Origin: Syntrophorhabdaceae bacterium
Lineage (GTDB): Bacteria > Desulfobacterota > Syntrophorhabdia > Syntrophorhabdales > Syntrophorhabdaceae
Direction: 5' to 3'
DNA: 64,000 nucleotides
Assembly: GCA_963666485.2 (NCBI GenBank)
Contig: CAXXUO010000004.1
Span: 64,001-128,000, forward strand
Position 1 is the first letter of the stretch. Every line of letters starts with the position of its first letter. A program made the position numbers and the translations under genes. Below the pieces are notes generated by a model. It saw only the letters and a list, made by a program, of their open reading frames with translations, ran no database searches and had not been told where the DNA came from. This document shows positions 12,329 through 61,327 of the stretch, one piece after another.

Positions 12329-14196
12329 CGCTTCCCCAGTTTCAGTTTCTGCACCTTATGAAAGATCCTGAGCATCAGGTGGTACACCCCGGCCGCCAGA
12401 CGATGGACAAAGGGAAACGGCACCAATGCTAAAGAAGTTTTGAGTGCCACCGAGCGGACCAGTTTTCTCACGCGTATGCTCATAGATTCGGGCAAGCGTT
12501 CGATGATCTCGGCCGGAAGCGGCAGTGCCGAAAAGATCGATGAAATACCGTTCCAGCGAGCGGTAGGGTAGCAATTGATCTTGATCACTTCGTTTGAATC
12601 CGCGGAGTACATGCCGATAGCCGCAGTAAGCAGGACGGTCTGCGACCTGCTGACGACACGATCTCTCAAATAAACGTCGAAATTCTGGATCGGGTCCGAA
12701 ACGTCTTCAGGGTATACAAGTCTCAGGGTTTTATCGGTCACTTTTTTAACAACAGCGTGTATGCCCATCGATTCGACCGAATCTCTGTATACATCGACAT
12801 CACCATCTTCATCCTGCACAAAGAGTATCTTATATCCCCCGAAATCGGGCAGTGCCCGGGAAAATGACTGAGACAAACCTGCAGTGAGGGGGAGCCTGAT
12901 CGTATGATGAATTATCATAACGTCAAAGGCAGTGATATTTATGTTGCATTTCGCGTTATTGGCCGCATGCGTGTAGAAGACCGCCGACCGGGTGAAACTC
13001 AACAAGGTACTGAGACTGTCATAGATGGTACCGAGATTTGTCGCGTACGCGTCATACAGAACGAGGACCTTCGGCGGGTTCCGTTCGGGCCGGGAGCCGA
13101 TAAGACGATCGATATGGCCCAGCAACTCGTTAAACCGTATGTCATAGTCCTGCCCGGAAGCGACCTTCAAACGATCTTGAATGGCAGCCCTGTCAAACCT
13201 GGCCGGGCCCAGTCGCGAAATGGTCTCCGCAAATTCCCGGGCCGTCCTCGCAAATTCAAAGCATTCCGGATACGATTCGAGGGCCTTGATCGGCACACTT
13301 ACGACCGGTAAACCGCACGCAGCATATTCGAAGGCCTTCAGGGGTAAAGATATATTGATGAGATCGATCTGCTTGAAAGGAATGACCCCCAGGGTGGCCT
13401 GGTGACAGATCTCGCGAAGCCTGTCAGGTTCCAGGTAACCCATGACCTTGATGTTTTTCGACCTAAGCGATTGTACATCTCTCACAGAATCGGGGGCAAC
13501 GCTTCCACAGAGCCAAAATTCCCAGTCCGGCAATTCCCGGCCGATGCCGTCAATGAGTTGCCAATCGAGCCGCCAGTTGAGTCCGCCCTGATATATCATG
13601 ATCTTTCTTTTGCCATCGGGCAAAGGAAGTTCGTCAGGTCCGGGAGCCCAATAATCATAATCGCAACCATTTGGTAAAAGCACGGCTTCGCCCTTATAAC
13701 GGTCTTCCCGGACATACGAATTCAGGACCTCCGGGGAAACGGCCACCAGGAGGTCAACACACTTCAGCAACTCGGTCAGGTCCTTAAGTGAATAGGCTTT
13801 CTGAGGAAAATCTTCCGAATAATGGTCTTCCGTCGCGTGGTAGATAAGCAGCGGGGAATGGCGTTGTATTATAAAAGGGAGAAAATGAGGGTTGTACACC
13901 CACAACAGCGGGCTTAAGAAGCCGTTTTTCAGTATGGCTTGATTGATGAATTTGCTCTGCTGTTCACCGTGCCTGGAGTAGACATGCACCACAAAGACAT
14001 TGTCGATCTCGGTCTTCTCGATCGTGAACCGCGGCTCGTTCAGATCAGCCTGAACGAACAGCACCGGCAACCACCTCGCGAAGCGCGATGCATAATGATA
14101 CCTGTTGCTTCGGGGCTCCGTTTTCCAATCGGAAGCCGTAAGCATTACCACGCAGTCAAAATGCTGTGCCAGTATGTCAGGGTTACCCGAGATCAT
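12325..14196 (-). CDS. GT4-like glycosyltransferase with an extra C-terminal domain
   Basis: YQGGLNWRLDW and SLPLKAFEYAACGLPVVS; the C-terminal part resembles the N-half of the 426/434-aa family. Confidence 0.75.
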   Translation of the reverse strand: MISGNPDILAQHFDCVVMLTASDWKTEPRSNRYHYASRFARWLPVLFVQADLNEPRFTIEKTEIDNVFVVHVYSRHGEQQSKFINQAILKNGFLSPLLWVYNPHFLPFIIQRHSPLLIYHATEDHYSEDFPQKAYSLKDLTELLKCVDLLVAVSPEVLNSYVREDRYKGEAVLLPNGCDYDYWAPGPDELPLPDGKRKIMIYQGGLNWRLDWQLIDGIGRELPDWEFWLCGSVAPDSVRDVQSLRSKNIKVMGYLEPDRLREICHQATLGVIPFKQIDLINISLPLKAFEYAACGLPVVSVPIKALESYPECFEFARTAREFAETISRLGPARFDRAAIQDRLKVASGQDYDIRFNELLGHIDRLIGSRPERNPPKVLVLYDAYATNLGTIYDSLSTLLSFTRSAVFYTHAANNAKCNINITAFDVMIIHHTIRLPLTAGLSQSFSRALPDFGGYKILFVQDEDGDVDVYRDSVESMGIHAVVKKVTDKTLRLVYPEDVSDPIQNFDVYLRDRVVSRSQTVLLTAAIGMYSADSNEVIKINCYPTARWNGISSIFSALPLPAEIIERLPESMSIRVRKLVRSVALKTSLALVPFPFVHRLAAGVYHLMLRIFHKVQKLKLGKR

Positions 14197-16123
14197 ATGC
14201 CTTCATCCATAACGAAAGGTTCAGCCACCGCCAGGAAGCAAAATCGGCTGCCGCAGACGTTCGCGACCTCGCAAAATATTCTGCCGCTTTCTCAGGTTGA
14301 ATGTAGCGGCGCACCCGTTCATCCTGTATGGCTTTTTCAATGACGGGGCCGAGCATCTCGTTTTGCCATTTTCGTTCAGGGGTCGCAAAACCTAATTTAC
14401 CGACGCGCCACCGTACCTTTTCAGGCAATACACCGGCCATAGCGTCCCGTAAAACACGTTTCGTATAGCCGTCGCGCAGCTTGAACCGCGACGGCAGGCC
14501 GAGTATAAATTCAACGAGCCTGTGATCAAGGAACGGCACGCGTGATTCCACTGAAAACGCCATTGAATTACGGTCCTCGTACCTCAGCAATGCCTGGAGA
14601 TTATTTATGAATGTCATCTGGTACAGTTTATTCTCAAGATGTTCTTTTACCCCGAAGGGCTTTAACCTCATCGTTTCGCCGTACATTGAACCCTGCGCAC
14701 ACGCCCGGGCAAATTCAACGTCCAGCCAATCCGGTACGGTCCCGTTGCCATTCGCCCTGCCCCGCGCGACCGAAAGGGCGCCACGGCATTGTTCCATGAG
14801 TACCTTCGCCCATGGCTTCCGGTGGACCGAAGCGTACCGGCGTGTTTCTTTCAGCAAGCCGCAGTACTGACGTTTTGCCCTTAGTTGATGGAAGTATGCG
14901 GAATATAGACCGACATATCCCGCCAGCATCTCGTCTGCGCCCTGCCCGTCGAGCATGACCTTGATATCGTTTTCCTTGACGAGCTTGAAAACGGACCATT
15001 GAGCAAAAATACTCGTCGACCCGAATGGCTCCTCCTGGTGAAAGACGATGCGGTCAAGATCTTTAACGAGGTCCTCCCCTGAGGGATAGGTGAAGTGAGA
15101 TCGGGCCCCTGTTTCCCGGATGACCTCCTGCATGTATTCAAGCTCGTTCGCCTCTTCATCTTCGAAATGAGAACTGAAGGTATGCTGGGCCCGTTCCGGG
15201 CTGCCCGTTTTCATGTGGTCACGTATCAGGCACACAATCGAAGAACTGTCGAGCCCGCCGGAGAGGCAGCTGCCGACCTCCACATCCGCCCGTAATTGCA
15301 GGCGCACGCTGTCGGAAAGGAGTCTCCGGAACTCTTCGGATGCCTCCGGCAATGTGATCTGCACATTTTTCTCAAACCCTGGATGATAATAGCGTGATCC
15401 CCGGATCGAACCATCTCTTAGATCAAGGACCAGGTTAGATCCCTGCATCAACCTCCTGATCGAGGCAAAGAACGTTTCTTCCGCGTGATCGACCGCACCG
15501 AAGGCGAGATAATCATATACCACATCGTCGTTAATCCGGCGCGGCACAAAAGCGAAGTGCAGCAATTGTTTTATCTCCGAGCCGAAAACGAACTGTGAAC
15601 CATTATAGAAATAATGAAATGGCTTGACCCCGAACCTGTCCCGGGAACAAAAAAGCTTCGCATTCTTGAGATCTGCCAGGGCAAACGACCAGATCCCGTT
15701 GAAGTGATGAACACATTCCTCTCCCCAGCGCTCGTATGCCGCAAGGATCACCTCGGTATCCGACGTTGTCCGAAAATCATATTCGGACGCCAGTTCATTT
15801 CTCAATTCGATGTAATTATATATTTCGCCGTTATAGGTGATCCACGAACCGCCTGTTTGGCTTGCCATAGGCTGGGCCGCATTGGGCGACAGGTCTATGA
15901 CTGCCAGCCTGCGATGCCCGAGGGCCAGTGTTACATTCTCCTCGGTCTGTATCGGTCCTTCGTGGGCAAAAGAGACCAACCGGGCTTCCGGGGGATCCAA
16001 CCGGAAACATGCGTAACCGAACCCGTCCGGACCCCGGTATGATACTGAGTCGTTGATATCGTGGAACCGGACCCTTTCAAGATCAATTCCCCCCCTATCG
16101 AAAAACCCTGTAATGCCGCACAT
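14183..16123 (-). CDS. asnB: Asparagine synthase-like amidotransferase
   Basis: MCGI, RGPD, SGGLDSS, DGQGADE, SVESRVPFLD. Confidence 0.92.
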   Translation of the reverse strand: MCGITGFFDRGGIDLERVRFHDINDSVSYRGPDGFGYACFRLDPPEARLVSFAHEGPIQTEENVTLALGHRRLAVIDLSPNAAQPMASQTGGSWITYNGEIYNYIELRNELASEYDFRTTSDTEVILAAYERWGEECVHHFNGIWSFALADLKNAKLFCSRDRFGVKPFHYFYNGSQFVFGSEIKQLLHFAFVPRRINDDVVYDYLAFGAVDHAEETFFASIRRLMQGSNLVLDLRDGSIRGSRYYHPGFEKNVQITLPEASEEFRRLLSDSVRLQLRADVEVGSCLSGGLDSSSIVCLIRDHMKTGSPERAQHTFSSHFEDEEANELEYMQEVIRETGARSHFTYPSGEDLVKDLDRIVFHQEEPFGSTSIFAQWSVFKLVKENDIKVMLDGQGADEMLAGYVGLYSAYFHQLRAKRQYCGLLKETRRYASVHRKPWAKVLMEQCRGALSVARGRANGNGTVPDWLDVEFARACAQGSMYGETMRLKPFGVKEHLENKLYQMTFINNLQALLRYEDRNSMAFSVESRVPFLDHRLVEFILGLPSRFKLRDGYTKRVLRDAMAGVLPEKVRWRVGKLGFATPERKWQNEMLGPVIEKAIQDERVRRYIQPEKAAEYFARSRTSAAADFASWRWLNLSLWMKAYDLG

Positions 16124-32146: not shown

Positions 32147-33415
32147 CTATTGACGATCCAGTACCTTGTTATCCAGGTATTCGAATAATGCATCGGCGGC
32201 CCATGAATGTCCCGTTTTGTTCCAATGTGCGTCATACCTCCACCTAGCTTCTTTCAGATCACCTCTTTTTGAGAAATATGTGTTTAGATCAATCAAGGGA
32301 ATGTTATTCTGATCCGCAATTTTCTTTATCCTTGACATATAACCTTTGTCTGTCGTTTTTCTTCCATTCATCTTGTCAGGACTCTCCGGAAGCGACGCGG
32401 CGTTGGCCATGATGACCAGTTTTGCGCCATCCTTAAGGGTCTTCTCTTTAAATACTTTGATAATGTGATCCGTAATGCCTACTGCATCTTCAAACACTGG
32501 CGGCATGTTTTCTGCGTAGATCATCAGATCCATATCAAGATCGTCGGGGAACTTCCAACCGGACAGCTGAGCCCTGTAAGAAGGCACCTGTCTCAATTCT
32601 GCTATTCTTTCCTTTACCACCTCATTGTAAGCATTAGTGCTTATTTTGAATTTGATGTCGATAATTTTCGTAAGCCATCTGTAGAGTGTGCTCCATCCCA
32701 AATAAGGGTTCATTTGATTCTCAATTCGTACAAAAAGCGGGGTCTTTCCTTTTGTTTTTAGTACGTATTTACCCCAATCAGGATCAATGTCGATCCTGGC
32801 ATAATCATTTTCACCTTTCTTTTCGAAAAACAGGCGGGGAGACTTGTACGGATCCCACCCATTCCTGATAGATTCCAACAAAGGCGAGTTATTAGCGAAA
32901 TCATTGTATACAAACACGATCACAACAAGATCTGGTTTATACTTCCTTCCCAGTTCTTCGTAGAAAGACAGGACATTACTCGTACCACAGCCTGAGAATC
33001 CCAATGCAATAACTTCAGGCTTTCTGAATGGATATTTCTTTTGCAGTTTTTCCTGCAAAATAGCCTGAATTTTATCTTTGGTCTCAACCTGTACGGCTTC
33101 GATAAATGAGTCTCCAAGTAATAGAACGCGATATGTTCCCCTCGGCTTTTCAAATGAATGCTCGTAATCCAAAAATCCTACCGAGTTTGCTTTTTGCGTA
33201 ACGCTATAATCAATGACATTGCTCCATTTGAGGGTTGAATTGGGCTTAAAAACAAACCCCAACCTGGGATTAAACTCGGCGGGCCAGGTGCTCTCCTGGA
33301 CCTTTACTGGAACAACAAAAACTCTTACTATCAATTCCAACACCAGAAAACAAATACATAAAGTTACGCCCAGGATCATAACATTTGTTATCAGGGGCGG
33401 AATCTTGATTTTCAT
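32147..33415 (-). CDS. Membrane-anchored SGNH/GDSL-family protein (AlgX/DltD/SxtL-like)
   Basis: N-terminal TM; LLGDSF, GFSG.G, YNDF, DAHWN. Confidence 0.8.
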   Translation of the reverse strand: MKIKIPPLITNVMILGVTLCICFLVLELIVRVFVVPVKVQESTWPAEFNPRLGFVFKPNSTLKWSNVIDYSVTQKANSVGFLDYEHSFEKPRGTYRVLLLGDSFIEAVQVETKDKIQAILQEKLQKKYPFRKPEVIALGFSGCGTSNVLSFYEELGRKYKPDLVVIVFVYNDFANNSPLLESIRNGWDPYKSPRLFFEKKGENDYARIDIDPDWGKYVLKTKGKTPLFVRIENQMNPYLGWSTLYRWLTKIIDIKFKISTNAYNEVVKERIAELRQVPSYRAQLSGWKFPDDLDMDLMIYAENMPPVFEDAVGITDHIIKVFKEKTLKDGAKLVIMANAASLPESPDKMNGRKTTDKGYMSRIKKIADQNNIPLIDLNTYFSKRGDLKEARWRYDAHWNKTGHSWAADALFEYLDNKVLDRQ

Positions 33416-33488
33416 TACTGTCTCAATGAACTAAAGGCTTTTCGGATAGCGGCGCGTCTTATGGGGACATCTATCTTCGTACCACCGA

Positions 33489-33893
33489 TCACCAGACATC
33501 CTGCAAGTCTTTTGGAATATAAAGATGGTTTCTTGTTTTATAGCCCGTTTCTCTCTTTCTGTTCATCTTGATTTCCATGAAATCCCCATGCAAGACACGA
33601 TAGAAGGCGGCAATAGGTGTTAAGAGAAGAAAAAAGATCATAGACAAAATGATTTTTGAATTTACGGTCCCCAAGAAATTGGCGAAGGCTAGCCAGAAAT
33701 AGGAGATCTTGCTGGCAACGTTTTTCAAAAAAACAGCAATGCCAAGGAGCGCAAGAGCCACGTAATACAGGATCTGCGTTTTAAACAACAGGCCGAATAC
33801 GATTGCCATCCCCGCGAGGATACACAGCGTTTCAATGCTTTTAAGGTCATGATCCTCTTTCGATCTAATGTCCGATGTCATATATGAACCCAA
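33489..33893 (-). CDS. sxtJ: SxtJ-family small membrane protein
   Basis: WLAFANFLGTVNSKIILSMIFFLLLTPIA pattern; lies downstream of the carbamoyltransferase. Confidence 0.75.
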   Translation of the reverse strand: MGSYMTSDIRSKEDHDLKSIETLCILAGMAIVFGLLFKTQILYYVALALLGIAVFLKNVASKISYFWLAFANFLGTVNSKIILSMIFFLLLTPIAAFYRVLHGDFMEIKMNRKRETGYKTRNHLYIPKDLQDVW

Positions 33894-33926
33894 TTTATCG
33901 ATCCTTTCCGCTACTCACATTTGCTT

Positions 33927-34076
33927 TCAGAACAGAGCATATATAAAGGGCGCGATAGCGGACCCTCCTGCAATAACGATCACCACGGCAAACAGAAGCA
34001 GAACAATTATAATCGGCAATAACCACCATTTTTTTCTTTGCCTCATAAAACCCCATAGATCAGCAAATAAGGACAC
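33927..34076 (-). CDS. sxtK: SxtK/DUF5989-family 49-aa membrane peptide
   Basis: Manual translation MSLFADLWGFMRQRKKWWLLPIIIVLLLFAVVIVIAGGSAIAPFIYALF*; AGGAGG RBS at 34085-34090; too short for the ORF track. Confidence 0.88.
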   Translation of the reverse strand: MSLFADLWGFMRQRKKWWLLPIIIVLLLFAVVIVIAGGSAIAPFIYALF

Positions 34077-34121
34077 TATCACAACCTCCTAAAAACACAT
34101 TTCTGTATAGTCAAGCGGCCT

Positions 34122-35999
34122 TTAATCAAGCCCATAAACAGCCCGCCAATCTATGTCATCAATCCATTCCGGCTGCTGTTTCTTGTCAAAAAGATAATTT
34201 CCTACGACGAGATAGTCCATTTCGGTTCTCATAAAGCACTTATATGCGTCGTCAGGCGTACAGACTATTGGTTCCCCTCTTACATTGAAACTGGTATTGA
34301 CTATCAATCCGCATCCGGTCTTTTCCTTAAAACGTTTGATCAAGTGCCAGTATCTTGGATTCGTTTCCTGATGAACAGTCTGTATACGCGCAGTAAAATC
34401 AATATGGGTGATCGCAGGGACATCCGATCGCACGAAGTACAGCTTATCTTTCCACGGAAAAGAATGATAATCCTCAGGTATCTGATTCCTTCTAGACTTC
34501 AGCACATTGGCGATGAGCAGCATGTAAGGCGAGACAGACTCCAGATCAAAGAACGTTTCTACATCTTCATCCAGTACAGAAGGGGCAAACGGCCGGAATC
34601 CCTCTCTGAACTTTATCTTCAGGTTCAGTTTCTTCTGCATGGCCGGACTCCGTGCATCGGCAATGATACTTCTGTTGCCAAGCGCGCGCGGTCCCCACTC
34701 CATCCGACCCTGGAACCAACCCAGGACGTTCCCGCTCTCGATAAGGTTTGCTACGACCTCACATAACTCATCAAAATCGTTGTAGTATGAATAGACTGCC
34801 TTTTTCTTTTTCCGGACTGCCATGCGCATGACTTCCAGGTCATCAAACATAGGTCCCAAATAAGAACCCTGCATTGAATCGGAACCCTTTTTATCGGTAT
34901 TGGCATCTCGAGGCTGGTCGAAATAGATGTGATAAGCAGAATAAGCTGCACCCAGCGCACCCCCGGCATCCCCCGCCGCAGGCTGGATCCATATATCCTT
35001 GAAAATCTTCTGCTTCAGCAGCTTACCGTTAGCGACACAGTTCAATGCCACGCCGCCTGCCAGGCATAGATACTCTGATCCTGTCAATCTTTTAGCTTCA
35101 CCGGCCATTCTTAAGACAATCTCTTCCGTTACGTTCTGAATGGCAAGGGCAAGGTCGCAATGAGCCGAAAGTAGATCCTCCTCCTCGTCTCTGGGAGAAA
35201 GACCGAACAATTTCTGCCACTTTGGGACATTCGCCATTCTCAGTCCGGTGGCATACTCGAAATACTCCTGGTTGAGAAATACAGAACCATCGTTCTTTAT
35301 ATCCAGCATTTCGGTCTTTATCAGATCTATAAAGTGCTTTGTCTGTTCAGATTCGGGGTTGCCGTACGGGGCAAGGCCCATAAGTTTATATTCGCCTGAG
35401 TTCACTTTAAAACCAAGGTAATAGGTGAATGCGGAATAGAGTAATCCCACTGAATGAGGAAAGCACAGTTCTCTGAGGATTTGTATGCTCTTCCCTTTTC
35501 CATGGCAGATCGAACTAGTTGCCCATTCACCAACTCCATCTATTGTCAATATTGCGGACTCCTGAAATGGGGAAGGATAGAATGCACTTGCTGCATGCGA
35601 GAGATGATGTTCAGGGAAGAGAAGCTTGGTCCTGTTTGCGTCGAACTTACCAAAAAGACTAAGTTCATTAAGGATCATTCTTTTGAGCATCAATTTTTCT
35701 TTGATCCAGACCGGCATAGCGGACAGAAACGATCGCAGACCTTTTGGGGCAAAGGCATAATATGTTTCCAATAATCGCTCAAATTTAAGAAACGGCTTAT
35801 CATAGAAGACGACCGCATTCAATTCTTCGACCGCGACATCTCCTTCCATAAGGCAATATCGGACTGCATTATGAGGAAAGGAGGGATCGTGTTTCTTTCG
35901 AGTAAACCGTTCTTCCTGCGCGGCCGCAAGAATTCTCGAATCGTGTAACAAAACTGCAGCTGAATCGTGATAAAATGCCGATATTCCTAAAATGTGCAT
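34122..35999 (-). CDS. O-carbamoyltransferase (NodU/CmcH/SxtI family)
   Basis: GISAFYHDSAA, AAQEERFTR, HHLSHAAS, GGVALNC, GPRALGNRS, NTSFNVRGEP. Confidence 0.95.
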   Translation of the reverse strand: MHILGISAFYHDSAAVLLHDSRILAAAQEERFTRKKHDPSFPHNAVRYCLMEGDVAVEELNAVVFYDKPFLKFERLLETYYAFAPKGLRSFLSAMPVWIKEKLMLKRMILNELSLFGKFDANRTKLLFPEHHLSHAASAFYPSPFQESAILTIDGVGEWATSSICHGKGKSIQILRELCFPHSVGLLYSAFTYYLGFKVNSGEYKLMGLAPYGNPESEQTKHFIDLIKTEMLDIKNDGSVFLNQEYFEYATGLRMANVPKWQKLFGLSPRDEEEDLLSAHCDLALAIQNVTEEIVLRMAGEAKRLTGSEYLCLAGGVALNCVANGKLLKQKIFKDIWIQPAAGDAGGALGAAYSAYHIYFDQPRDANTDKKGSDSMQGSYLGPMFDDLEVMRMAVRKKKKAVYSYYNDFDELCEVVANLIESGNVLGWFQGRMEWGPRALGNRSIIADARSPAMQKKLNLKIKFREGFRPFAPSVLDEDVETFFDLESVSPYMLLIANVLKSRRNQIPEDYHSFPWKDKLYFVRSDVPAITHIDFTARIQTVHQETNPRYWHLIKRFKEKTGCGLIVNTSFNVRGEPIVCTPDDAYKCFMRTEMDYLVVGNYLFDKKQQPEWIDDIDWRAVYGLD

Positions 36000-36094: not shown

Positions 36095-37975
36095 TCAGCT
36101 GACGTCCAGCGTGTTTTCATGCTGAACCATCCACTCATTGAGAAACAGCAAATTCCATATCTTAGCCGACATATCATGGACTCTTGAATGTTCGTTCAAA
36201 ATCCTCTGGATCGTGTCCATGTTAAAGAACAACGGCAGATGTTTTGAATTAACGAGCCTTCCTCTTACATCTTCTCTCAGTCCACCCGCAAACCAGTCCC
36301 CAAGCGGGATCCCGAAACCTTTCTTGGGCCTTTCTATCACAGATTTCGGAAATCTTTTCAGGGCGAGGGCCTTCAAAATATACTTCTTGTCATACGTGGT
36401 CTGTCCATCAGCGTGAATCTCGCGCAGTTTGAAACTGGCCGGGATTGTTGCCGCAATCTCCATCAATCGATGGTCAAGAAGCGGGGTTCTGACCTCCAAG
36501 GAATTTGCCATAGACGCAATATCGACCTTTGTCAGGATATCGTACGGAAGATATGTCAGTATATCAAGGTGCTGCAGCCGGCTTACCAACGTGTCACCCT
36601 GAAGAGCCAGGAGACTTCTTCGATACGATTGCTCATTATCGACCAGCGAAGCGTATCTCTCGTTATACAGGAGGTCCCTCTCCTGGGAGGAAAAATGCTT
36701 ATAGACCGAAGAATAAAGATCGAAGATACTGTGTCCGCTGTTTTGCTCCAATATCGGCCTGGCTCTGCCGAGTAGCCCCAAAGCGTATCGGGTCAACCTT
36801 TCACCAAATTTCTCTTGCCTTTTCTTGACCTGCCCGGAGACCACATACTCGTACGTGTTGTATCCGGCAAAGTTCTCGTCGCCCCCGTCACCGCTCAAAA
36901 CCATCTTGACGTTTTCCCGGGCCATACGCGACACATAGTATGTGGGGATAGCTGATGAATCGGCAAAAGGCTGGCCATAATGTTTGACAAGCAGCGGCAG
37001 AATACCGAGAGATTCCACTTTGACGATCTTTGTGTAATGCTCGGTGCCGCATAGTTCGGCAACCTGCTTTGCATACTGCAATTCACTGAAATCCGCATTC
37101 TCAAACCCGATGCTGAAGGTCTTGACGGGTTGGTTCAGGATATCGGACATATATCCCACTACCAGGCTGGAATCAATTCCTCCACTTAGAAATGCCCCGA
37201 AGGGCACATCACTCACAAGCCTTAACCTTACGGATTCACGCAGTACACAATCCAATTCTTCCAGCCAATCATCAAAAGATAAAGACCTGTCCTCCTTGAA
37301 ACTGAGTCCCCAGTATCTTTTCCTGACAATCTGACCGGATTTTGTATCAACCGCGAGGTAATGTGCCGGGGGCAGGCAGTGCACATCCCGGTAAATGGTG
37401 CGGGGAGCAGGGATGTATTGCCAGTACAGGTAATCGTCGAGTGCTTCAGGGTTGATTCTGAAGGGGCCTGCTACGCGATAAAGCGGCTCAATCTCGCTCG
37501 AAAAGAACAGGGTGCCGTTCCGCGTGGTGTAAAAAAGAGGTTTTTTACCCGCACGGTCGCGAGCGATCAAGGCCTTGCCGCTCCCGGTGTCATAGCAGGC
37601 AAAAGAGAACATACCGCGGAAATGCTCAAGACAGTCCTCGCCCCATTCCAGACAGGCATTTAAAACGACCTCAGTATCCGAATGCGTGTCGAAGCGCCGT
37701 CCCGTCTTTTCGAGATCTTTGCGTATCTCGGGAAAATTATATACTTCTCCGTTATACGTTATTATTCCGGTACCGGTATGGTCCTGCATGGGCTGTTTGC
37801 CCAGGTCGAGGTCGATGATTGAAAGACGTGCATGCCCGAACGAGACCGGTCCTGCCGTTTCCACCCCGTGGCCGTCCGGGCCCCGATGCCGCATCAGCCC
37901 GATCCCTGTTGTGACCTTATCGATTTCCGCACAGTCAGAACCGTTAAGATTGATGGCCCCAAAGATCCCGCACAT
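36095..37975 (-). CDS. asnB: Asparagine synthase-like amidotransferase
   Basis: MCGI, HRGPD, SGGIDSS, SGDGGDE. Confidence 0.92.
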   Translation of the reverse strand: MCGIFGAINLNGSDCAEIDKVTTGIGLMRHRGPDGHGVETAGPVSFGHARLSIIDLDLGKQPMQDHTGTGIITYNGEVYNFPEIRKDLEKTGRRFDTHSDTEVVLNACLEWGEDCLEHFRGMFSFACYDTGSGKALIARDRAGKKPLFYTTRNGTLFFSSEIEPLYRVAGPFRINPEALDDYLYWQYIPAPRTIYRDVHCLPPAHYLAVDTKSGQIVRKRYWGLSFKEDRSLSFDDWLEELDCVLRESVRLRLVSDVPFGAFLSGGIDSSLVVGYMSDILNQPVKTFSIGFENADFSELQYAKQVAELCGTEHYTKIVKVESLGILPLLVKHYGQPFADSSAIPTYYVSRMARENVKMVLSGDGGDENFAGYNTYEYVVSGQVKKRQEKFGERLTRYALGLLGRARPILEQNSGHSIFDLYSSVYKHFSSQERDLLYNERYASLVDNEQSYRRSLLALQGDTLVSRLQHLDILTYLPYDILTKVDIASMANSLEVRTPLLDHRLMEIAATIPASFKLREIHADGQTTYDKKYILKALALKRFPKSVIERPKKGFGIPLGDWFAGGLREDVRGRLVNSKHLPLFFNMDTIQRILNEHSRVHDMSAKIWNLLFLNEWMVQHENTLDVS

Positions 37976-48582: not shown

Positions 48583-51441
48583 CTAGTTATTTCTTATTTC
48601 CATGTTGCAGCAATTCATCCCTGATTCGAATATTTTGTATCCCCGGGGATGCAGTTTTCCGTTCTGGCTGTTCATGAATACTTCTGTGGCGATACCTTTC
48701 TTCACGTCCGGAAAGATAAACATGCCATTATAACCGGTTTTTGTCGACAGGTATTCTTCGTCCTGTCTCAAGAATACCTCAAGCCCGTCTTCCCCGGAGA
48801 CAACGCGGCCGCCTATTACCGCGCTTTCGGGATGCCTGTGATCGACCCTCTCGGGGAGAAAAGAGATTCTGTGTAGTTCCACGAAGTCCCCGTCGGCGGA
48901 GTTATCTCCTGTCAGGATAACATGTATCCTGGACACCGAACCCGTCGGCAAACGCCTTGTTTGATTTCCGTTGTGTGACATGTCCTTCAGGTCGTATGTT
49001 CTATATTTGACCTTGCCCGCCTCGCTGCCCTTCATGCGGATACCGGCGTATTCGATACAACGGTCCGCTTCCTCGCACCATATGAACTCGTCCCGGTCTT
49101 CCACGGTAAAGCCTATACCGAGAAACATCGAATCACTATTCTTTCGGTATGCGAAATGAAAATAGCGCCCATCACCCAGTTCGAGGGAATCAGGTACAAA
49201 TGTAAGGCGCGCTGCACCGGGGCCGTTTTTCGTGAATTTGCCAACCGATAACCCGGCATCAAAATAATAGTCCCCCCCGGAGACGTCCAGCACCCCGGCC
49301 TGGTCGAAAAAACCGACCTTTCCATGAATAACCTTCTGGGAAGTGGCATCAAGGATCGTTACACTATTCCTTCCTGACTCATCCGGCCCGTTACATTTGT
49401 AAAAGTGATAAAGCTCGTTGTCGATGATCACGTCGGTCGTCTCGGGGTCGTCGACGTATATCGTGGCTCCGTGCAAGAATGATACCTGCCGTGAAATGAT
49501 CGGGCAGAAATGGTTGTGCCACAATCTGATGGAGACCGTTTTCTGACCTATGTCCAGGTGCCGGTCCAGGTCTCTCGTCATTGCAGCGTAACGGGCCAGC
49601 ACTGATGCTGGAGTCACCCAGATCCTGGGACCGCTCAGGCCTGATAAGTCCGCCTGCAGATCGGAGAGCACAAGAAGCGCCTCTACTGTCTGGTCGTTGA
49701 ATATCTCCTGCTCGGGCTGAAGGAGGATGTCCGCAGCTCCCCAGTGCACGTAAATGATTGCCGCATGGCCGGGCCTGACAGCTAATTGATGTATTGCCTC
49801 GGACAGCTGAAAACCGAGGTTTTCATTATGATGAATATCTGCATGCCTCGCATAATAGGGGTGTCCTTCCTTCTCTTCTGCGATATAGCGGGGTACTATG
49901 TAGATCGGACGGTCGTCTCGGCTTAAATCCTCGATCAACAGTTCTGTTATCAGGTTGGATGCGGAGTTCAGGGGGACATGGGGGTCATCTGCGGCAAACG
50001 CCATACGTGCCGGGCATATGAACGATACCCCTCTTTGAGCGAGCAGATCATAGTGATAGGCCGATGAGGAGCGCAGGTCAGCTTCGCCTGTTCTGTAAGG
50101 ATTGCCTCTAAAGATCGGTCCTTTGAAAGTGGGTGAGGTCATGGTTGAGACAAATTGCTTTCCGCCATGGCACACCATTAGGATGGGGATCATTTTCAGA
50201 GACTCCAAGACCGGCGCCTGACTCTCAACTATTGCCCTGTGAAAGGGCAGTGCACAAACACCTTCCAAGGCAAACCTGCCGCTGCCTTTTAGCGACAGGA
50301 CCATACGGTCAATAGATGCGCCCGGCACATCCAGCCTCGATCCAACCGGCTGGTTTCTTTCCTTGCTGTATAGCAGATATTTACCGTCGACAAGATCTGC
50401 GGGCTCCCATCCTGAACTCGACAGGAGTTCTCCCCTCAATACGACTGTATGGCTGCCGCCTCTGTTGTCGGTGAGGATCAATTCCGCTGTTTTCACGCCC
50501 GGATCGATCTGTGCGTTTATGACCAATCCATAGTTGCCAAAGGCCAGATAACCTGTATCCCGGCGATTAACGTCAATAACCTGTTCGATCTCGCCCTGCA
50601 CCTGAATGTCCAAAGGGGAACAAATGTTACCCGGCTCGACAAAATCATCATCCCAGGAATGGCATGAATCAAACCAACCGCGGTGGAACATCTCCAACAA
50701 TTCTGACGCGGTTTTGTTGTTAAGGTCCCCTGATGTATTACGAAAAAAGATACACGCATTCTCCGGCTGGCATGAGAGGTTCCCCGAAGGCCAGAAGGAG
50801 TCTCCCTGGTTAACGCCGATCTGGGATTCAATGTACTCGTGAATAGACCTGGCCATTCCGACGGTCATGCCGTCCACGTCGCTTGCAATGGCCAGCGCAT
50901 TGTTATAGGGAAAGGGCAAAACACGGCAATTCTTGCCCAACCGTGGGTCAACCTTCTGGTCTGTGAAAGGACGGGTCTTCTGTGCAAAAGCAATGCGCGC
51001 GTCCCTCGCTGCACCTGCGAGGTCCGCTATGTCCTGCCTCCTTTGCGGCTTGACGGGTTTTAAGATATAGACCCTCCCGTTCTTTCTGGGGTCGGAATTA
51101 TCTGAAGTGCTGAAATAGAGAAAGTTGTGCCAGTGTGAATAACCGCCTGAACCTCTGTTGATTATGGTTGCGTGCATGGAATGCGCAGGAAATAGTTCTT
51201 TGCCGTCCTCAAAAAGAATATACGTTGAATTCCTCGGTTTTTCCGTGGAGTCACCCTGTTCAGCCGGAAGCTCCAATCTTACCGAATATCCGAACGGCTC
51301 CAGGCAGTTGATATCGTTTGTGTTAATTACTCGTACCCCGGGGTCTTGCTGCGGCAATGTATCGACAGTTACAGGATCGATCACATCCCCAACCGCGCCT
51401 TTGAAGAAGATTTTTCTTATGTTCCTGATCATGGATGTCAT
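48583..51441 (-). CDS. 952-aa protein: unnamed His-rich N-terminal domain + polysaccharide-deacetylase-like region
   Basis: PFPYNNALAIASDVDG, DSCHSW, VCHGG, IIYVHWG; N-terminal domain shared with 52231..53505. Confidence 0.55.
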   Translation of the reverse strand: MTSMIRNIRKIFFKGAVGDVIDPVTVDTLPQQDPGVRVINTNDINCLEPFGYSVRLELPAEQGDSTEKPRNSTYILFEDGKELFPAHSMHATIINRGSGGYSHWHNFLYFSTSDNSDPRKNGRVYILKPVKPQRRQDIADLAGAARDARIAFAQKTRPFTDQKVDPRLGKNCRVLPFPYNNALAIASDVDGMTVGMARSIHEYIESQIGVNQGDSFWPSGNLSCQPENACIFFRNTSGDLNNKTASELLEMFHRGWFDSCHSWDDDFVEPGNICSPLDIQVQGEIEQVIDVNRRDTGYLAFGNYGLVINAQIDPGVKTAELILTDNRGGSHTVVLRGELLSSSGWEPADLVDGKYLLYSKERNQPVGSRLDVPGASIDRMVLSLKGSGRFALEGVCALPFHRAIVESQAPVLESLKMIPILMVCHGGKQFVSTMTSPTFKGPIFRGNPYRTGEADLRSSSAYHYDLLAQRGVSFICPARMAFAADDPHVPLNSASNLITELLIEDLSRDDRPIYIVPRYIAEEKEGHPYYARHADIHHNENLGFQLSEAIHQLAVRPGHAAIIYVHWGAADILLQPEQEIFNDQTVEALLVLSDLQADLSGLSGPRIWVTPASVLARYAAMTRDLDRHLDIGQKTVSIRLWHNHFCPIISRQVSFLHGATIYVDDPETTDVIIDNELYHFYKCNGPDESGRNSVTILDATSQKVIHGKVGFFDQAGVLDVSGGDYYFDAGLSVGKFTKNGPGAARLTFVPDSLELGDGRYFHFAYRKNSDSMFLGIGFTVEDRDEFIWCEEADRCIEYAGIRMKGSEAGKVKYRTYDLKDMSHNGNQTRRLPTGSVSRIHVILTGDNSADGDFVELHRISFLPERVDHRHPESAVIGGRVVSGEDGLEVFLRQDEEYLSTKTGYNGMFIFPDVKKGIATEVFMNSQNGKLHPRGYKIFESGMNCCNMEIRNN

Positions 51442-52230: not shown

Positions 52231-53505
52231 TTATTGTTTTTCAGCCCAGCAGAAAAAATTAATACCCCGGGTGCCTTTTTCCCTGTATCTCATTTCCCCC
52301 CGATACATTGCCATAGCCAGTACTCCATTGATCTTTGAATGTATTGCCTTAAGGGATCGTGACTTCCAGAGCCTTGTCTTCATTTCCGCCAGGGGAAAAT
52401 TCTTAAAATTGAATTTTTCTGCAATGTAAATGAACATGAACCTGGGGTCGCAATTGAATTCATTATATTGCTTAATCCTGAACCCAACGGGTTCCAGGTA
52501 TTTTTCGATCTGAGGTCTTCCAATCAAATTCTGCGTGTACAGTTTCCGATATTCAAAGAAGGTTTTCTTTCCTCCAAACATCTTGTAAATGTGGAACGGA
52601 AACCACTTCTTATAATACAGTTCCGTAAAACCGCTAAAGAAAGCATTGCCGCCCTTGGTCAATATATACTGGAACGCCTGAAAGATCTTTTCCGTTTCAG
52701 GGCTGTCAAAATCATCGATGCTGTGGATCATTACGATCGTCCTATAGGTCCCGTGCTTCAAGGTCTGCGGAACCTTCAGGTCAAAATAGACGAACTCCTT
52801 GTGCGGCAAACGGTCCTGAAATTGCCTGCAATGATCGAAGCAGTATTCCGTGCCGGTCGTAAAACTGTAATTCAGGTAGCATATTGAACTGGCGCCTTCT
52901 CCCACGGCAATCTCGATAGAGGGGTCAACTATTTTCATGCTGCGAAAAAATTCACTGTCAAGATACTGTCTGAAATATTCGGTCAGAAGCGAAGGCCATC
53001 GAGGCTCGGTTAAATCGAAGATCGATTCGTAGAATCTGCAGAAATCCGCTTTATCGAAATCGACGTTTCGAAAAGACAACAGCTCGGGTAAAAACAATAG
53101 CCATGTAAGAATTCGGGTTACTATCCAGAGCAACATTCCGACGGCCGGCCTGTAAACGTCGGCCAGATACTTCCTTATAAGGGGAGGGACAATTCTCTTC
53201 CGCCGGGAAAGAACATACTGCATCCCATTTGACCGGGGATCGGAATTGTTGCTTGAAGAAAAATAGAGAGTATCTTCCCAATGTGAATATCGTCCATTTC
53301 CGTCGTTCACGATCTCCGAATGAAATGAATGCCCCGGGCCTATTTCAGAACTGTCTTCGAACAATTTCCAGGAAGAATGACGAGCATGACCGGAATCATC
53401 TCCCTCAGACTTCGAGAGGGGAAGACGTACTGTATACAAATTGCCGGAGACATGGTATACACCGGCAGGTTGAATCCTTATCTCTTTGTTTATGATATTC
53501 GTCAA
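52231..53505 (-). CDS. Unnamed His-rich domain + divergent methyltransferase-like domain
   Basis: IEIAVGEG and ILTKGG; N-terminal repeat of the 952-aa protein domain. Confidence 0.55.
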   Translation of the reverse strand: MTNIINKEIRIQPAGVYHVSGNLYTVRLPLSKSEGDDSGHARHSSWKLFEDSSEIGPGHSFHSEIVNDGNGRYSHWEDTLYFSSSNNSDPRSNGMQYVLSRRKRIVPPLIRKYLADVYRPAVGMLLWIVTRILTWLLFLPELLSFRNVDFDKADFCRFYESIFDLTEPRWPSLLTEYFRQYLDSEFFRSMKIVDPSIEIAVGEGASSICYLNYSFTTGTEYCFDHCRQFQDRLPHKEFVYFDLKVPQTLKHGTYRTIVMIHSIDDFDSPETEKIFQAFQYILTKGGNAFFSGFTELYYKKWFPFHIYKMFGGKKTFFEYRKLYTQNLIGRPQIEKYLEPVGFRIKQYNEFNCDPRFMFIYIAEKFNFKNFPLAEMKTRLWKSRSLKAIHSKINGVLAMAMYRGEMRYREKGTRGINFFCWAEKQ

Positions 53506-53562: not shown

Positions 53563-54807
53563 TTACTGTCTTCTTATATCGCCCCATTTTGCATCGCCTT
53601 CATACGCATATGGCACCGGGGCGCGCCATGAATAACGCCGCTTTACGAAAAACTTGCGGCATCGTCTCTCCAGGGCGATAATATCACCTTCTTTTCTGAT
53701 CAGTGTGTCCCGGGTAATTCCGAGTGTAAGCCAATATTCACCTGCGCCGAGGAGGAGTTCGTCTGTAGAAATCTCAAACGTGCCTTCCCCGGCCAGGCCA
53801 TCAAAAATAAGTCCCTGTTCATTGCCGTCAGAGCCGGTGATCCAAATACCTTCAGAACTCTCTATTCTATACAAAGGCATGATATCCTGTTTTGGGCTGC
53901 TGCCTTTCCATGAAAAACGGAGTCTGAAGGGCTCTCCCTGCATGAACGTCGTCTTCTCGATTCCATCGTGATCACATGTCTTTATGTCGTAAATCTCTAT
54001 CTCGCCGGTACCTTCACGGTATGACGCGCTGTGAAGAGCATTTTGCAGTTCCTGTTCCGGCTCTTCCGCTTGAGTCCCGTGGATCAATTGCTGCACATAT
54101 TTTTCATAGGCCATGCATACGCCCATTGATACGTCGTAAAACTTCACCTTGCCTTCATGTATCCACAATGCCCGCTGGCAGATACGTTTGACAAGGTCGA
54201 GTGTATGCGAAACAAAAAGAACTGTGGTGCCGCTCCTGCAAATATCGTAGATCCTTTCAAGACATTTGCTGACAAAGTAGGAGTCGCCGGCTGCAAGCGC
54301 CTCATCCAGAATGAAGATATCGGGTTCAATGCTCATTGCTGTTGAAAACGTCAATCTCGCCTGCATCCCGCTTGAATATGTTTTGAAGGGCCTGTCGATA
54401 ACGCTGCGTAACTCGCTAAAATCAATAATGGACTCTACCTTTTTGTCAATTTCGTCACGACTCATCCCGAGGCACATGCCGCCCATATATATATTTTCCC
54501 GTCCTGTATATTCGCTGTGAAATCCGGATCCCAGTTCAAGGATAGCGGATATCTTGCCATCTATATGAACATTACCGGATGTTTTATCGAGAGTGCCTGC
54601 CAATATCTTCAGGAGAGTACTCTTGCCGGCTCCGTTAGGGCCTATGATCCCTACCACCTCGCCTCTTTTTACCTCAAACGAAACATCCTGCAATGCCCAG
54701 AACTGCTCATGAAACGGCTTTCCGGTCACAAGTTCTTTGAACATGTCTTTGGGCTTGTTGTAAATCTTGTACATTTTTGAAAGGTTCTCGACCTTGATAG
54801 CACTCAT
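53563..54807 (-). CDS. wzt: Polysaccharide ABC exporter ATPase with C-terminal Wzt_C domain
   Basis: [24 protein letters not shown], ~170-aa C-terminal extension. Confidence 0.93.
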
Positions 54808-54822
54808 AAATACCGTTCCCTG

Positions 54823-56727
54823 TTATTTCCCTGATATGATCTCTTTACGATAAAGGTATTCAAGGATCTTGTCTAGGATTCCGGAAACATCTTCCGATTC
54901 CGTATTTACCACGATCTCCGGATCGAGCGGTTCTTCATAAGGGGATGAGATTCCGGTAAACTCAGATATCTGACCACTGCGGGCCTGTTGATAAAGTCCA
55001 TGGGGGTCCCTTTGCGCACACGTATCGATGCCGCACTGCACATAGATCTCGATAAAACGGGAACCGTCTATAATTGACCTGACGAAGTCCCGGTCTCTCC
55101 GGAAAGGGGAGATGAAGGTGCATAAGACTATGTTCCCTGCTTCGTAAAAAAGTCTCGCCGTTTCACCTGCGCGCCGTATATTTTCACTTCTGTCCCTGTC
55201 GGAGAACCCGAGATCCCCGCATAATCCATGCCTTAAATGATCTCCATCCAAGAGCATCGTCAGGCAATCCATATCAAAGAGCTGTCTTTCCAGGCGTTGC
55301 GCAATTGTTGATTTTCCCGATCCGGAATAACCCGTAAACCAAAGAACAGCCGCTCCGTGATTATTCCGGAATTCACGTTCCACGCGGCTTATATTGCACT
55401 TGTGCCACACGGCATTTGGCGACCTCATCCTAAGGTCTTCCGTACTGGCAGACTCATTGATAATCTCTCCCAGTGAACGGGAAGCGCCACGGATGACCCC
55501 GGCAGCCACCGTATTGTTGCTCAAGGCGTCTATAAGAATAAAACTGCCCGTTGCCCTGTTCGTTTTGTAATTATCGAAAAACACGGGTTGGGAGGTGCGG
55601 ACCTGCACTCTGCCGATCTCATTGAGACCAAATGTGTCCGCCGCCTCGCGATGCAGGGTGTTCATATCGATCTTATAAGTGATGCTGTCGATAAATGCCT
55701 TTACAGACCGGGTGGTGTGTTTTAGGATATACGGTTTATCACCGGACAGGGGTGTTTCATCCATCCAGCATATCGTGGCGTCGAATTTATTGCTGATGAC
55801 AGGGACGTTATTTTTCCGGACGATCATGTCGCCGCGGCTGACGTCGACCTCGTCCTCCAGGGTCATCACGACAGATTGTGGGCAAAACGCCTCGGGCAGT
55901 TCGCCGTCATATGTCACGATCCGCTTGACGCGGGTGGTGCGGGCCGAAGGCAGGACGATCACCTCCTCGCCCGGCGAAACAGTGCCGGAGACGATCTTCC
56001 CCGCAAATCCGCGAAAATCAAGATGGGGCCGAATAACGTACTGGACGGGAAACCGGAAATCTATAAGGTTCCTGTCGGCTGAAACATGGATGTTCTCCAG
56101 GTAATGCAGCAAGGTCACATCATCATACCACGGCATATTGCCGCTTTTTTCAACGACGTTGTCACCCCTCAGGGCAGAAACAGGGATGAAGACGATGTCG
56201 TGGACGTCAAGCTTTTCCGAGAACTCGCCATACTCCTCCACTATCCCATTGAACACATCCTCGGAATAATCGACAAGATCCATCTTGTTGACGGCCACCA
56301 GGATCCTCGGTATCTGCAGGAGCGATGCGATGAACCCGTGGCGCTTCGACTGGGTCAGCACCCCATTTCTGGCATCGATAAGGATAATGGCGCAATCGGC
56401 TGTCGACGCGCCTGTCACCATATTGCGCGTATATTGAACATGTCCCGGCGTATCGGCTATGATGAACTTTCTTTTCGCCGTCTCAAAATAGCGGTATGCG
56501 ACATCGATAGTGATCCCCTGCTCCCGCTCCGCGGACAGTCCGTCGAGCAGTAACGCCAGGTCTACGTCTGCCAGGCCCTTGCGTTCCGATGTCTTCTGTA
56601 TGGCGGCATACTGGTCTTCATAGATGGATTTCGTTTCATACAGCAGGCGCCCGATAAGGGTGGATTTCCCGTCATCGACGCTGCCCGTCGTCGTAAAACG
56701 CAATATTGACTTTTCCCCGCCAGGCAC
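54823..56727 (-). CDS. cysNC: Sulfate adenylyltransferase large subunit fused to APS kinase
   Basis: GSVDDGKST, AEREQGITIDVAYRYF, NKMD; C-terminal WFTGYSGSGKST, LDGD, FISP. Confidence 0.95.
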   Translation of the reverse strand: MPGGEKSILRFTTTGSVDDGKSTLIGRLLYETKSIYEDQYAAIQKTSERKGLADVDLALLLDGLSAEREQGITIDVAYRYFETAKRKFIIADTPGHVQYTRNMVTGASTADCAIILIDARNGVLTQSKRHGFIASLLQIPRILVAVNKMDLVDYSEDVFNGIVEEYGEFSEKLDVHDIVFIPVSALRGDNVVEKSGNMPWYDDVTLLHYLENIHVSADRNLIDFRFPVQYVIRPHLDFRGFAGKIVSGTVSPGEEVIVLPSARTTRVKRIVTYDGELPEAFCPQSVVMTLEDEVDVSRGDMIVRKNNVPVISNKFDATICWMDETPLSGDKPYILKHTTRSVKAFIDSITYKIDMNTLHREAADTFGLNEIGRVQVRTSQPVFFDNYKTNRATGSFILIDALSNNTVAAGVIRGASRSLGEIINESASTEDLRMRSPNAVWHKCNISRVEREFRNNHGAAVLWFTGYSGSGKSTIAQRLERQLFDMDCLTMLLDGDHLRHGLCGDLGFSDRDRSENIRRAGETARLFYEAGNIVLCTFISPFRRDRDFVRSIIDGSRFIEIYVQCGIDTCAQRDPHGLYQQARSGQISEFTGISSPYEEPLDPEIVVNTESEDVSGILDKILEYLYRKEIISGK

Positions 56728-57683
56728 TAGAAGTAGCCTTCCTTCTTCTTCTGTTCCATCGATGAGTCGCTCGTCAGGTCAATGATGCGGTTTTCGCGTT
56801 CTGACTTGCGGGCACGCCTCACCTCGCCAATGATACCGTCTATTGTCGTCGATCCCGATTCGATCGCACCCGTGCACGGAATACATCCGAGGCTCCGGAA
56901 ACGGCTCATGACAATTTCGACCTCTTCGCTATCAGTTCCCTCGCCCTGCCCGTCACCCCCTGGCGTCCCCTTCCCCCCTGGGCCATTCACGGTTGAACAG
57001 GAAGACACCGGGATCAGGATCCCCTTTCTTCGGATCACGGGCCTTTCCTGTGCGTAATAGATGGGCACTATAGGTATGTTCTCGAGTTTTATATATTGCC
57101 ACACATCCTGTTCCGTCCAGTTGCTTAAAGGAAAGACGCGGACGGTCTCACCCTCATTTATGCACGTATTGAACAGGTCCCAGACCTCGGGCCGCTGGTT
57201 CTTGGGGTCCCATTGTCCATGCGGATCTCTAAGAGAAAAGACCCTCTCTTTTGCCCTTGATTTCTCTTCGTCCCTTCGTGCCCCGCCAAACGCGGCGTCA
57301 AAACCATGCTTCCTGATGGCGTCGAGCAGCGCCCCCGTCTTAAGGTAGCTGCAGCATTTGTCGACCCCTATCTTCAACGGATGGCATCCGTTCTCGATCA
57401 TCTCCTCGTTGCGTTCCACTATCAGCCTGGCCCCGATCTCCCGGCAGAAGCGGTCCCGGAATTCGTACATCTCCGGGAACTTGAAGCCGGTGTCTACGTG
57501 CATCAACGGAAAGGGGAATTTCCCCGGATAAAAAGCCTTCTGGGCAAGCCTGACCATAACGCTCGAGTCTTTTCCCACGGAATAAAGCATGACGGGATTC
57601 TGAAATTCGGCAACAACTTCCCGCATTATATGTATGGATTCGGATTCGAGCTGCCTGAGAAAAGAGATGGTGTAAGAACTCAT
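56727..57683 (-). CDS. cysD: Sulfate adenylyltransferase small subunit
   Basis: [36 protein letters not shown]. Confidence 0.96.
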
Positions 57684-58531: not shown

Positions 58532-58540
58532 GAACAAGCC

Positions 58541-60289: not shown

Positions 60290-60296
60290 ACCGCCA

Positions 60297-61298: not shown

Positions 61299-61327
61299 TG
61301 AACCCTCTTTTCCGGCCCGGAACACTG

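Follow-up and report, generated by a model that had tools for sequence, protein, structure and literature searches.

A carbamoyltransferase module with a tyrosine-tailed DUF5989 microprotein and its possible role as a periplasmic carbamoyl relay

Four consecutive genes of a Syntrophorhabdaceae bacterium encode a carbamoyltransferase (CT), a DUF5989 peptide (K), an SxtJ protein (J), and an anchored SGNH enzyme (SGNH). They lie in a stretch of 64,000 nucleotides (assembly GCA_963666485.2, contig CAXXUO010000004.1, positions 64,001 to 128,000), referred to here as the window, all on the minus strand and where a preliminary description of the window had placed them (Table 1). That description listed a cytoplasmic CT, a 49-residue peptide with RQRKK and a terminal APFIYALF, a J protein, and an anchored SGNH protein with GDS and DxH, and the gene content is as described. 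A Pfam scan of the window finds the four genes embedded among glycosyltransferases, nucleotide-sugar enzymes, amidotransferases, and a Wzm/Wzt exporter, and this surrounding glycosyltransferase and tailoring locus is the likely source of the acceptor. The host genome (3.77 Mb, 99% complete) contains a single CT, a single J, a single K, and a single related SGNH. The four-gene feature is real and widespread, and it is undescribed in the literature searched, the coverage of which leaves outside most subscription journals; in the same literature DUF5989 has no described function and no tyrosine carbamoyl relay has been proposed. As discussed below, K may carry a carbamoyl group across the membrane on its C-terminal tyrosine.

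Table 1. Positions, assignments, and supporting evidence for the module and for the glycan exporter in the window.
Feature	Position	Strand	Assignment	Basis
CT	34122..35999	-	O-carbamoyltransferase, NodU/CmcH/TobZ family, SxtI-like branch; cytoplasmic donor enzyme	PF02543 + PF16861, closest solved chains, K-linked clade
K	33927..34076	-	DUF5989 49-aa membrane microprotein: amphipathic N-helix, RQRKK, one transmembrane helix, uncharged FxYxxF tail	PF19451
FIYALF hexapeptide of K	33930..33947	-	Tyr46 codon 33939-33941, proposed carbamoyl carrier	Tyr -4 conservation, MBOAT tails
J	33489..33893	-	SxtJ-family small membrane protein; proposed scaffold or conduit	PF19588, structure model
SGNH	32147..33415	-	Membrane-anchored, CgnD-like subfamily, predicted periplasmic; proposed final carbamoyltransferase	PF13472, conserved triad, fold match CgnD 8a2n
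Wzt	53563-54807	-	Glycan exporter part; context outside the module	PF00005 + PF14524
Wzm	61328-62176	-	Glycan exporter part; context outside the module	PF01061

The CT (625 residues, with no hydrophobic segment) belongs to the NodU/CmcH/TobZ family by both of its Pfam domains (PF02543, 311 bits; PF16861, 244 bits) and by its catalytic and metal residues. Its closest solved chains are GdmN, NovN, and TobZ, with which, as with NodU, it shares the two-domain architecture and the catalytic residues. H11, H131, H135, D154, and D344 are invariant among 73 relatives, and their catalytic and metal roles are presumably those of the TobZ counterparts. Enzymes of the TobZ family form carbamoyl-AMP from carbamoyl phosphate and ATP, and TobZ, GdmN, NovN, and NodU transfer the group directly onto their own acceptors. 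Against the NodU equivalog model the CT scores 130, the cut-off being 1000. The CTs linked to K group in a single clade (FastTree, midpoint root; support 0.88-1.0) that has a conserved segment of its own at 65-102.

K starts at the second GTG, with AGGAGG 8 nt upstream, which gives 49 residues; the first GTG, at 34082, chosen by the open reading frame (ORF) finder, gives 51. It matches PF19451 with 87 bits, RQRKK precedes its single transmembrane (TM) helix, and P21, Y46, and F49 are invariant in 110 alignment rows. Over the last 9 codons of K in 72 relatives, the non-consensus fraction at codon positions 1, 2, and 3 is 0.15, 0.01, and 0.55, respectively. Such codon-level purifying selection, with second positions fixed and third positions variable, argues that K is a real gene. 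Three ORFs of the host genome end in F-x-Y-x-x-F/W, and K is the only membrane protein among them. The best 120 of 485 K matches all end in PFIYxxF, having been chosen by similarity to the query. A fairer set consists of 80 loci from named genomes that were retrieved via the CT and are thus unselected on the peptide: 72 of them carry K, and all 72 peptides have the YxxF ending. To this set were added 60 K regions from the phylum of the window, 58 of them with a K ORF, and one N-terminal fragment of a frameshifted K gene was excluded from the count of C-termini. An invariant tyrosine four residues from the end of DUF5989, as anticipated in the preliminary description, is what the alignments contain: Tyr stands at -4 in 132 of 132 C-termini and in 80 of 80 metagenome loci, with Phe at -1 in 131/132 and Phe at -6 in 130. 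The FXYXXF motif has been reported in DltX and PatA (PMC12148441 and PMC13653941), and it ends all 20 MBOATs examined from the phylum of the window, often as PFIYFxF. Over the last 13 residues the mean Kyte-Doolittle (KD) value is 1.19 for K versus -0.01 for the MBOATs, with 0-1 versus about 2 charges. K has on average 3.7 Lys/Arg before the TM helix and none in the last 14 residues, and its motif is predicted to follow a TM helix whose N-terminus is inside. The K profile retrieves nothing below E 0.06 from PDB sequences, and atlas searches returned known families only. DUF5989 is common, being present in 72 of 301 genomes of the phylum, in 57 of 151 genomes of a Bacteroidota sample, and in 6,320 clusters at 50% identity.

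Some K variants have Pro directly after the Tyr (L092:5999-6199, L094:5937-6089, L095:5988-6149, L146:6046-6213, and L081:2899-3054). Two of these are tandem second copies and two are distant from any CT; such variants may serve another donor or acceptor. A divergent K that ends in ISFIYAGI is accompanied by a short J-like ORF and adjoins a basal K-branch CT (L274:7109-7523).

J exceeds the PF19588 cut-off of 24.4 with 27.2 bits. Its model (pLDDT 90.8) has helices at 3-31, 34-49, and 51-96. J comprises two short TM helices, one amphipathic helix, and one hydrophobic helix kinked at a Pro, and its tail is basic. The sole invariant residue is P87; W61 is present in 102 of 105 sequences and G69, L77, and R93 are nearly invariant, and no conserved His, Tyr, or Cys and no conserved catalytic residue is found in J. 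The fold search returned generic helical hairpins only (best Z 6.6). Short forms of J retain just the Pro-kinked helix with its basic ends. In-frame J-K fusions (P0149/P0186 and L087) join the J tail to the N-terminus of K, so that both are probably cytoplasmic; from the short forms and the fusions, the J helix may be re-entrant. A CT-J fusion is possible in L097. The apparent fusions P0199 (CT-J-K), P0189, P0198, P0157, P0169, and P0210 were rejected because their junctions are garbled or read through, as happens when assembly or gene calling goes wrong. Long J fusions were scored in none of 8000 candidates, which is weak evidence. J looks like a scaffold rather than a catalyst. The preliminary description had J and the CT replace the MBOAT, and this part is given up as far as chemistry is concerned because J has no conserved catalytic residue; at most, J could provide a route for the K tail to the cytoplasmic enzyme.

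The SGNH enzyme has 422 residues, one N-terminal TM helix, and a PF13472 domain (54.7 bits). GDS is located at 101-103, with the Ser103 codon at 33107-33109, and D395-x-H397 completes the triad. In its relatives Ser is conserved in 74/74, His in 73/74, and Asp in 67/74. The best fold match of the model (pLDDT 81.5) is CgnD (8a2n, Z 21.9; root-mean-square deviation 3.0 over 245 aligned residues), followed by a match at Z 16.2 and by PatB at 13.8. Among 60 listed PDB chains, CgnD is the only one matched end to end by the subfamily profile, positions 55-349 of which align in one stretch (E 5.5e-15) that covers an N-terminal beta extension and the SGNH core. The block II change of PatB and OatA (Gly to Ser or Asn) is absent from the window SGNH, and DltD too retains this Gly. 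An N-terminal TM helix is present in 90 of 95 K-linked SGNHs. Among those with a single TM helix, net charge favours an N-in orientation in 55 of 72 and the opposite in 9, with 8 ties; the others mostly have three TM helices, that is, the same topology parity. The same SGNH subfamily flanks MBOAT genes: 24 of 37 MBOAT loci, four of which were chosen because SGNH adjacency had already been seen, have a match, 12 of them at >=60 bits. Thirteen MBOAT-linked SGNHs are interspersed among the K-linked ones in a weakly supported tree. An anchored SGNH partner with an intact triad, as in FXYXXF shuttles, is thus present at the locus, and no MBOAT that would load the tyrosine was found.

Linkage was counted in well-flanked loci, which have at least 3 kb on both sides. 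Loci found via the CT contain K in 52 of 53 cases, J in 53 of 53, and an SGNH within 3 kb in 30 and within 9 kb in 34; the 50 loci found via K contain a CT in 45, J in 43, and an SGNH in 28. The SGNH profile was trained on these same loci, and as an independent check Pfam assigns an SGNH-type domain to 34 of 48 SGNH candidates, nothing to 13, and TPR rows only to one. CT loci from other branches have neither K (0/30) nor J (0/30) and yield one weak SGNH-profile match; 31 of 33 motif-bearing ORFs there have no Pfam SGNH domain (0/31) and the remaining two are CTs. Four loci of the K branch lack a visible K ORF, and in all four of these bacterial genomes K is found elsewhere. K genes that stand apart from CT and J often adjoin an SGNH (L093, L308, L310, L380, L404, and L418). 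At eight K loci without a CT, all from one set, no PP-loop partner was recognised by eye or by comparison of four neighbours with NCBIfam. In the Bacteroidota sample, 18 K loci comprise 16 with a CT, 16 with J, and 10 with an SGNH. MBOATs are unlinked to K: no MBOAT is found among the 46 window proteins scanned with Pfam, as noted in the preliminary description, and no PF03062 match is found in the host genome by a search that was positive in 3 of 14 known genomes used as a control. Of 67 K genomes, 32 have no MBOAT and one has an MBOAT within 20 kb of K. At the genome level the SGNH subfamily occurs in 66 of 68 K genomes versus 23 of 233 without K (E 1e-15 or better), including 37 of 39 K genomes outside the profile training set and 32 of 33 K genomes that lack an MBOAT. 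One of the two K genomes without the subfamily has a frameshifted K and no CT. Judged from gene content and divergence, CT, J, and K form the tight unit, whereas linkage of the SGNH is loose and this partner can be exchanged.

A soluble counterpart is found in phages. A scan for phage genes ending in DPFIYK gave at least 120 loci, 80 of which were analysed. The PFIYK peptides are soluble, basic, and amphipathic; their loci have a CT in 57/80 and SGNH-like ORFs in 25/80, and neither J (0/80) nor K (0/80), and none of 35 SGNH-like ORFs is anchored. A membrane peptide, J, and an anchored SGNH thus co-occur, as do a soluble peptide, absence of J, and a soluble SGNH. K-linked CTs and PFIYK-peptide CTs both have Y66, K72, R75, D38, E158, S189, K198, G252, and C321. 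No common ancestry of K and the PFIYK peptides is claimed, since the K profile misses the peptides (best E 0.05 against 66) and their CTs sit on a long branch without a settled placement in the tree. A possible second soluble form, L272:5065-9264, has a CT near the K branch, a 59-residue soluble protein ending in FVYPH, an unanchored SGNH, and no J.

Based on these patterns, we propose that the module acts as a periplasmic tyrosine relay, a reading to which we give a probability of roughly 55%. CT, J, and K would form a membrane-bound donor module, and the anchored SGNH would be an exchangeable, acceptor-specific transferase. In the cytoplasm the CT would use carbamoyl phosphate and ATP to make carbamoyl-AMP, a step established for the TobZ family, whose catalytic residues it retains. 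The CT would then move the carbamoyl group onto Tyr46 of K, giving an aryl carbamate; to let the tyrosine reach the CT at the inner face, the uncharged tail would bend back into the membrane next to J. In chemical terms an aryl carbamate suits a serine hydrolase as donor. The tail would swing to the periplasmic face and carbamoylate Ser103 of the SGNH, in the way DltX acts with DltD, and the SGNH would hand the group to a hydroxyl of the glycan exported by Wzm/Wzt. The relay is supported by the conservation of Tyr -4 and Phe -1, including the 72 peptides found via the CT; by the restriction of K and J to one CT clade and the lack of linkage to MBOATs; by the matching MBOAT tails and an SGNH subfamily that is tied to K genomes and also flanks FxYxxF MBOATs; by SGNH anchoring that follows peptide anchoring when K and phage PFIYK loci are compared; and by a K tail more hydrophobic than those of MBOATs, the J-K fusions, and stray K genes that adjoin an SGNH. 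The DltX-like carrier of the preliminary description is retained in its tyrosine, its tail, and its tie to the SGNH subfamily, but not with the SGNH as a fixed partner.

Several observations weigh against this proposal. Only about 55% of the well-flanked loci (30/53 and 28/50) have an SGNH within 3 kb, and SGNH divergence is not tied to the divergence of the other three proteins (rho -0.07 to 0.04, versus 0.50-0.67 among CT, J, and K). The expected co-occurrence of all four genes without an MBOAT holds for CT, J, and K and for the unlinked MBOAT, but only loosely for the SGNH. J has no conserved catalytic His, and it is costly to move a carboxylate at a C-terminus across the bilayer. The structural neighbours of the SGNH after CgnD are mostly esterases, and the block II Gly (G142 in the window) is retained in 52 of 74 relatives, with Ser in 8, Ala in 8, and Asn in 3. 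Five phage records (L082-L086, one complete) have a K-branch CT and a short J of 48-57 residues without K; one of these CTs is sister to a Pelagibacteraceae CT, so that K may come from the host. SxtL has been proposed as a decarbamoylase (PMC2679770 and PMC3037375), and N-sulfation of the saxitoxin carbamoyl uses 3'-phosphoadenosine 5'-phosphosulfate (PAPS; PMC2684587), which points to a cytoplasmic carbamoylated product there. Finally, related genomes are not independent samples, and the counts given here are patterns rather than statistics.

The main alternative, which we consider unlikely, accounts for several of these points. CT, J, and K would form a complete carbamoyltransferase that acts at the inner face on a lipid-linked glycan before export, with J and K anchoring the CT and the K tail serving as a structural or acceptor-binding subunit; the SGNH would act separately, in the periplasm, as a de-carbamoylase or editor, comparable to Ape1 next to PatAB or to the role proposed for SxtL. 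It fits the tight co-occurrence and co-divergence of CT, J, and K without the SGNH, the canonical block II Gly and esterase fold neighbours of the SGNH, and the view printed for saxitoxin, in which SxtI/J/K is the transferase and SxtL the remover (PMC2679770, PMC3037375, and PMC12300590), and it requires no membrane crossing. However, it leaves unexplained the MBOAT/DltX motif at the free C-terminus of K, the same SGNH subfamily beside MBOATs and in 66 of 68 K genomes, and the way SGNH anchoring tracks peptide anchoring. In L. wollei, sxtL was reportedly lost together with sxtI, which is compatible with relay and remover roles alike.

A relay confined to the cytoplasm is a poorer candidate still. 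K would fold as a hairpin whose tail never leaves the cytoplasmic side, the SGNH domain would likewise face inward, and the whole would be a membrane-tethered form of the soluble phage system. The soluble PFIYK peptides and soluble SGNHs indicate that one-compartment chemistry is possible, the K tail is uncharged, and cytoplasmic saxitoxin sulfation is compatible with such an arrangement. The charge bias of single-TM SGNHs toward N-in and C-out (55/72 versus 9, the others mostly having three TM helices) argues against it, as do the MBOAT-linked members of the SGNH subfamily, which are expected outside.

By analogy, the module proposed as a periplasmic relay would work like DltB-DltX-DltD and PatA-PatB but without a membrane-embedded acyltransferase, and it stands outside the MBOAT systems. 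The Dlt system likewise has a microprotein of about 50 residues with a single TM helix and a C-terminal FxYxxF (PMC12148441 and PMC13653941), and DltD resembles the window SGNH in its anchor, Ser-Asp-His triad, and block II Gly. Unlike Dlt, the module described here has no MBOAT and no carrier protein, a soluble ATP-dependent carbamoyltransferase as the donor, an extra small membrane protein (J), an uncharged tail, a carbamoyl instead of an acyl group, and Gram-negative hosts. PatA-PatB and AlgI-type pairs share the terminal motif (20/20 MBOATs), often preceded by Pro (PMC12148441), and some of their MBOATs are flanked by the same SGNH subfamily. They differ in that the motif here is on a free microprotein, with no membrane-embedded catalytic His and no PatB block II change.

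CgnD (PDB 8a2n, PMC10070186) is the closest solved fold to the SGNH and shares a cluster with a carbamoyltransferase, CgnI; in contrast to the window SGNH it is soluble and is assigned as a slow leader protease, and the crocagin table in that source includes neither J nor K. This relationship suggests a third alternative, which is highly improbable, in which K is itself the end substrate: the CT would carbamoylate K and the CgnD-like SGNH would clip off a small modified peptide, crocagin-style. In its favour, CgnD has been assigned as a leader protease whose precursor has IYW and a basic stretch at its end. However, CgnD cleavage is slow with undetectable binding, and CgnD and CgnI are listed for the crocagin cluster only, the four related cluster types listing no CgnD-type hydrolase and no CT (PMC10070186 and its Supplementary Table 5). 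Furthermore, K is usually single-copy, membrane-bound, and strongly constrained across phyla, and in saxitoxin clusters, where J and K are described, the carbamoyl group ends on a different molecule. CgnD may itself be a carbamoyl relay enzyme.

Saxitoxin clusters contain the same four gene types, of similar length: SxtI, J, K, and L are 1839, 405, 165, and about 1280 bp (PMC2679770) versus 1878, 405, 150, and 1269 bp in the window. The window J lies above the SxtJ cut-off. Unlike the saxitoxin genes, the window module sits in a glycan locus. SxtK is a protein which we take to be DUF5989. The printed roles are unknown or 'in conjunction' with SxtI for J and K, and decarbamoylase for L (PMC2679770). 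An extension of the relay to saxitoxin, put forward in the preliminary description, runs against the published role proposed for SxtL, and the loci compared here include none from cyanobacteria. It is a tentative thought, somewhat less probable than the relay itself, that the module represents a third tyrosine-shuttle architecture beside MBOAT-SGNH and AT3-SGNH. It would consist of a soluble ATP-dependent loader, J-aided crossing of the tail, and swappable CgnD-like SGNHs that serve a wide range of exported acceptors. In that case SxtL and CgnD would transfer carbamoyl groups instead of acting as hydrolases, and the phage PFIYK system would be a single-compartment form.

The glycan locus of the window contains four AsnB-like amidotransferases (8160-10085, 14183-16123, 36095-37975, and 62187-63884), a sulfotransferase, methyltransferases, and a radical SAM enzyme, and its glycan is heavily tailored. 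The interval between wzm and wzt (window 54823-61430) encodes a pstSCAB-like transporter and cysD/cysNC. A small domain ending in about FSxSxNSDP occurs in two window proteins without Pfam matches (48583-51441 and 52231-53505) and also at the end of the L272 SGNH (L272:7000-9264). On a Methylosinus plasmid (L416:2774-8836), an AMP-binding protein and a 79-residue ORF lie directly upstream of SGNH-J-K-CT, an order that suggests a non-glycan acceptor. Sinorhizobium meliloti has all four genes as SM_b20469-72 (L414:9631-13833, strain 1021 pSymB 482210-486412), about 6 kb from a glycosyltransferase/DUF995/GH26 operon (annotation from strain ABS7, L413). SM_b20472, named ornithine carbamoyltransferase (arcB2) in PMC7268258, is despite that label a NodU-family enzyme, 57% identical to the window CT. 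The four genes of strain 1021 are non-essential in rich medium, and their rows in nodule TnSeq data have no clear common phenotype (CT 59 hits versus 44.6 expected).

If the relay is true, it would be a widespread route to O-carbamoylated envelope glycans, in which a moving peptide tail takes the group across the membrane and no membrane acyltransferase takes part. SxtJ, SxtK, and SxtL, which have stood as unknown or hypothetical since 2009, would gain roles as well, and the protease assignment of CgnD would come into question. S. meliloti 1021, a harmless and genetically tractable host that carries all four genes, lets the question be tested directly.

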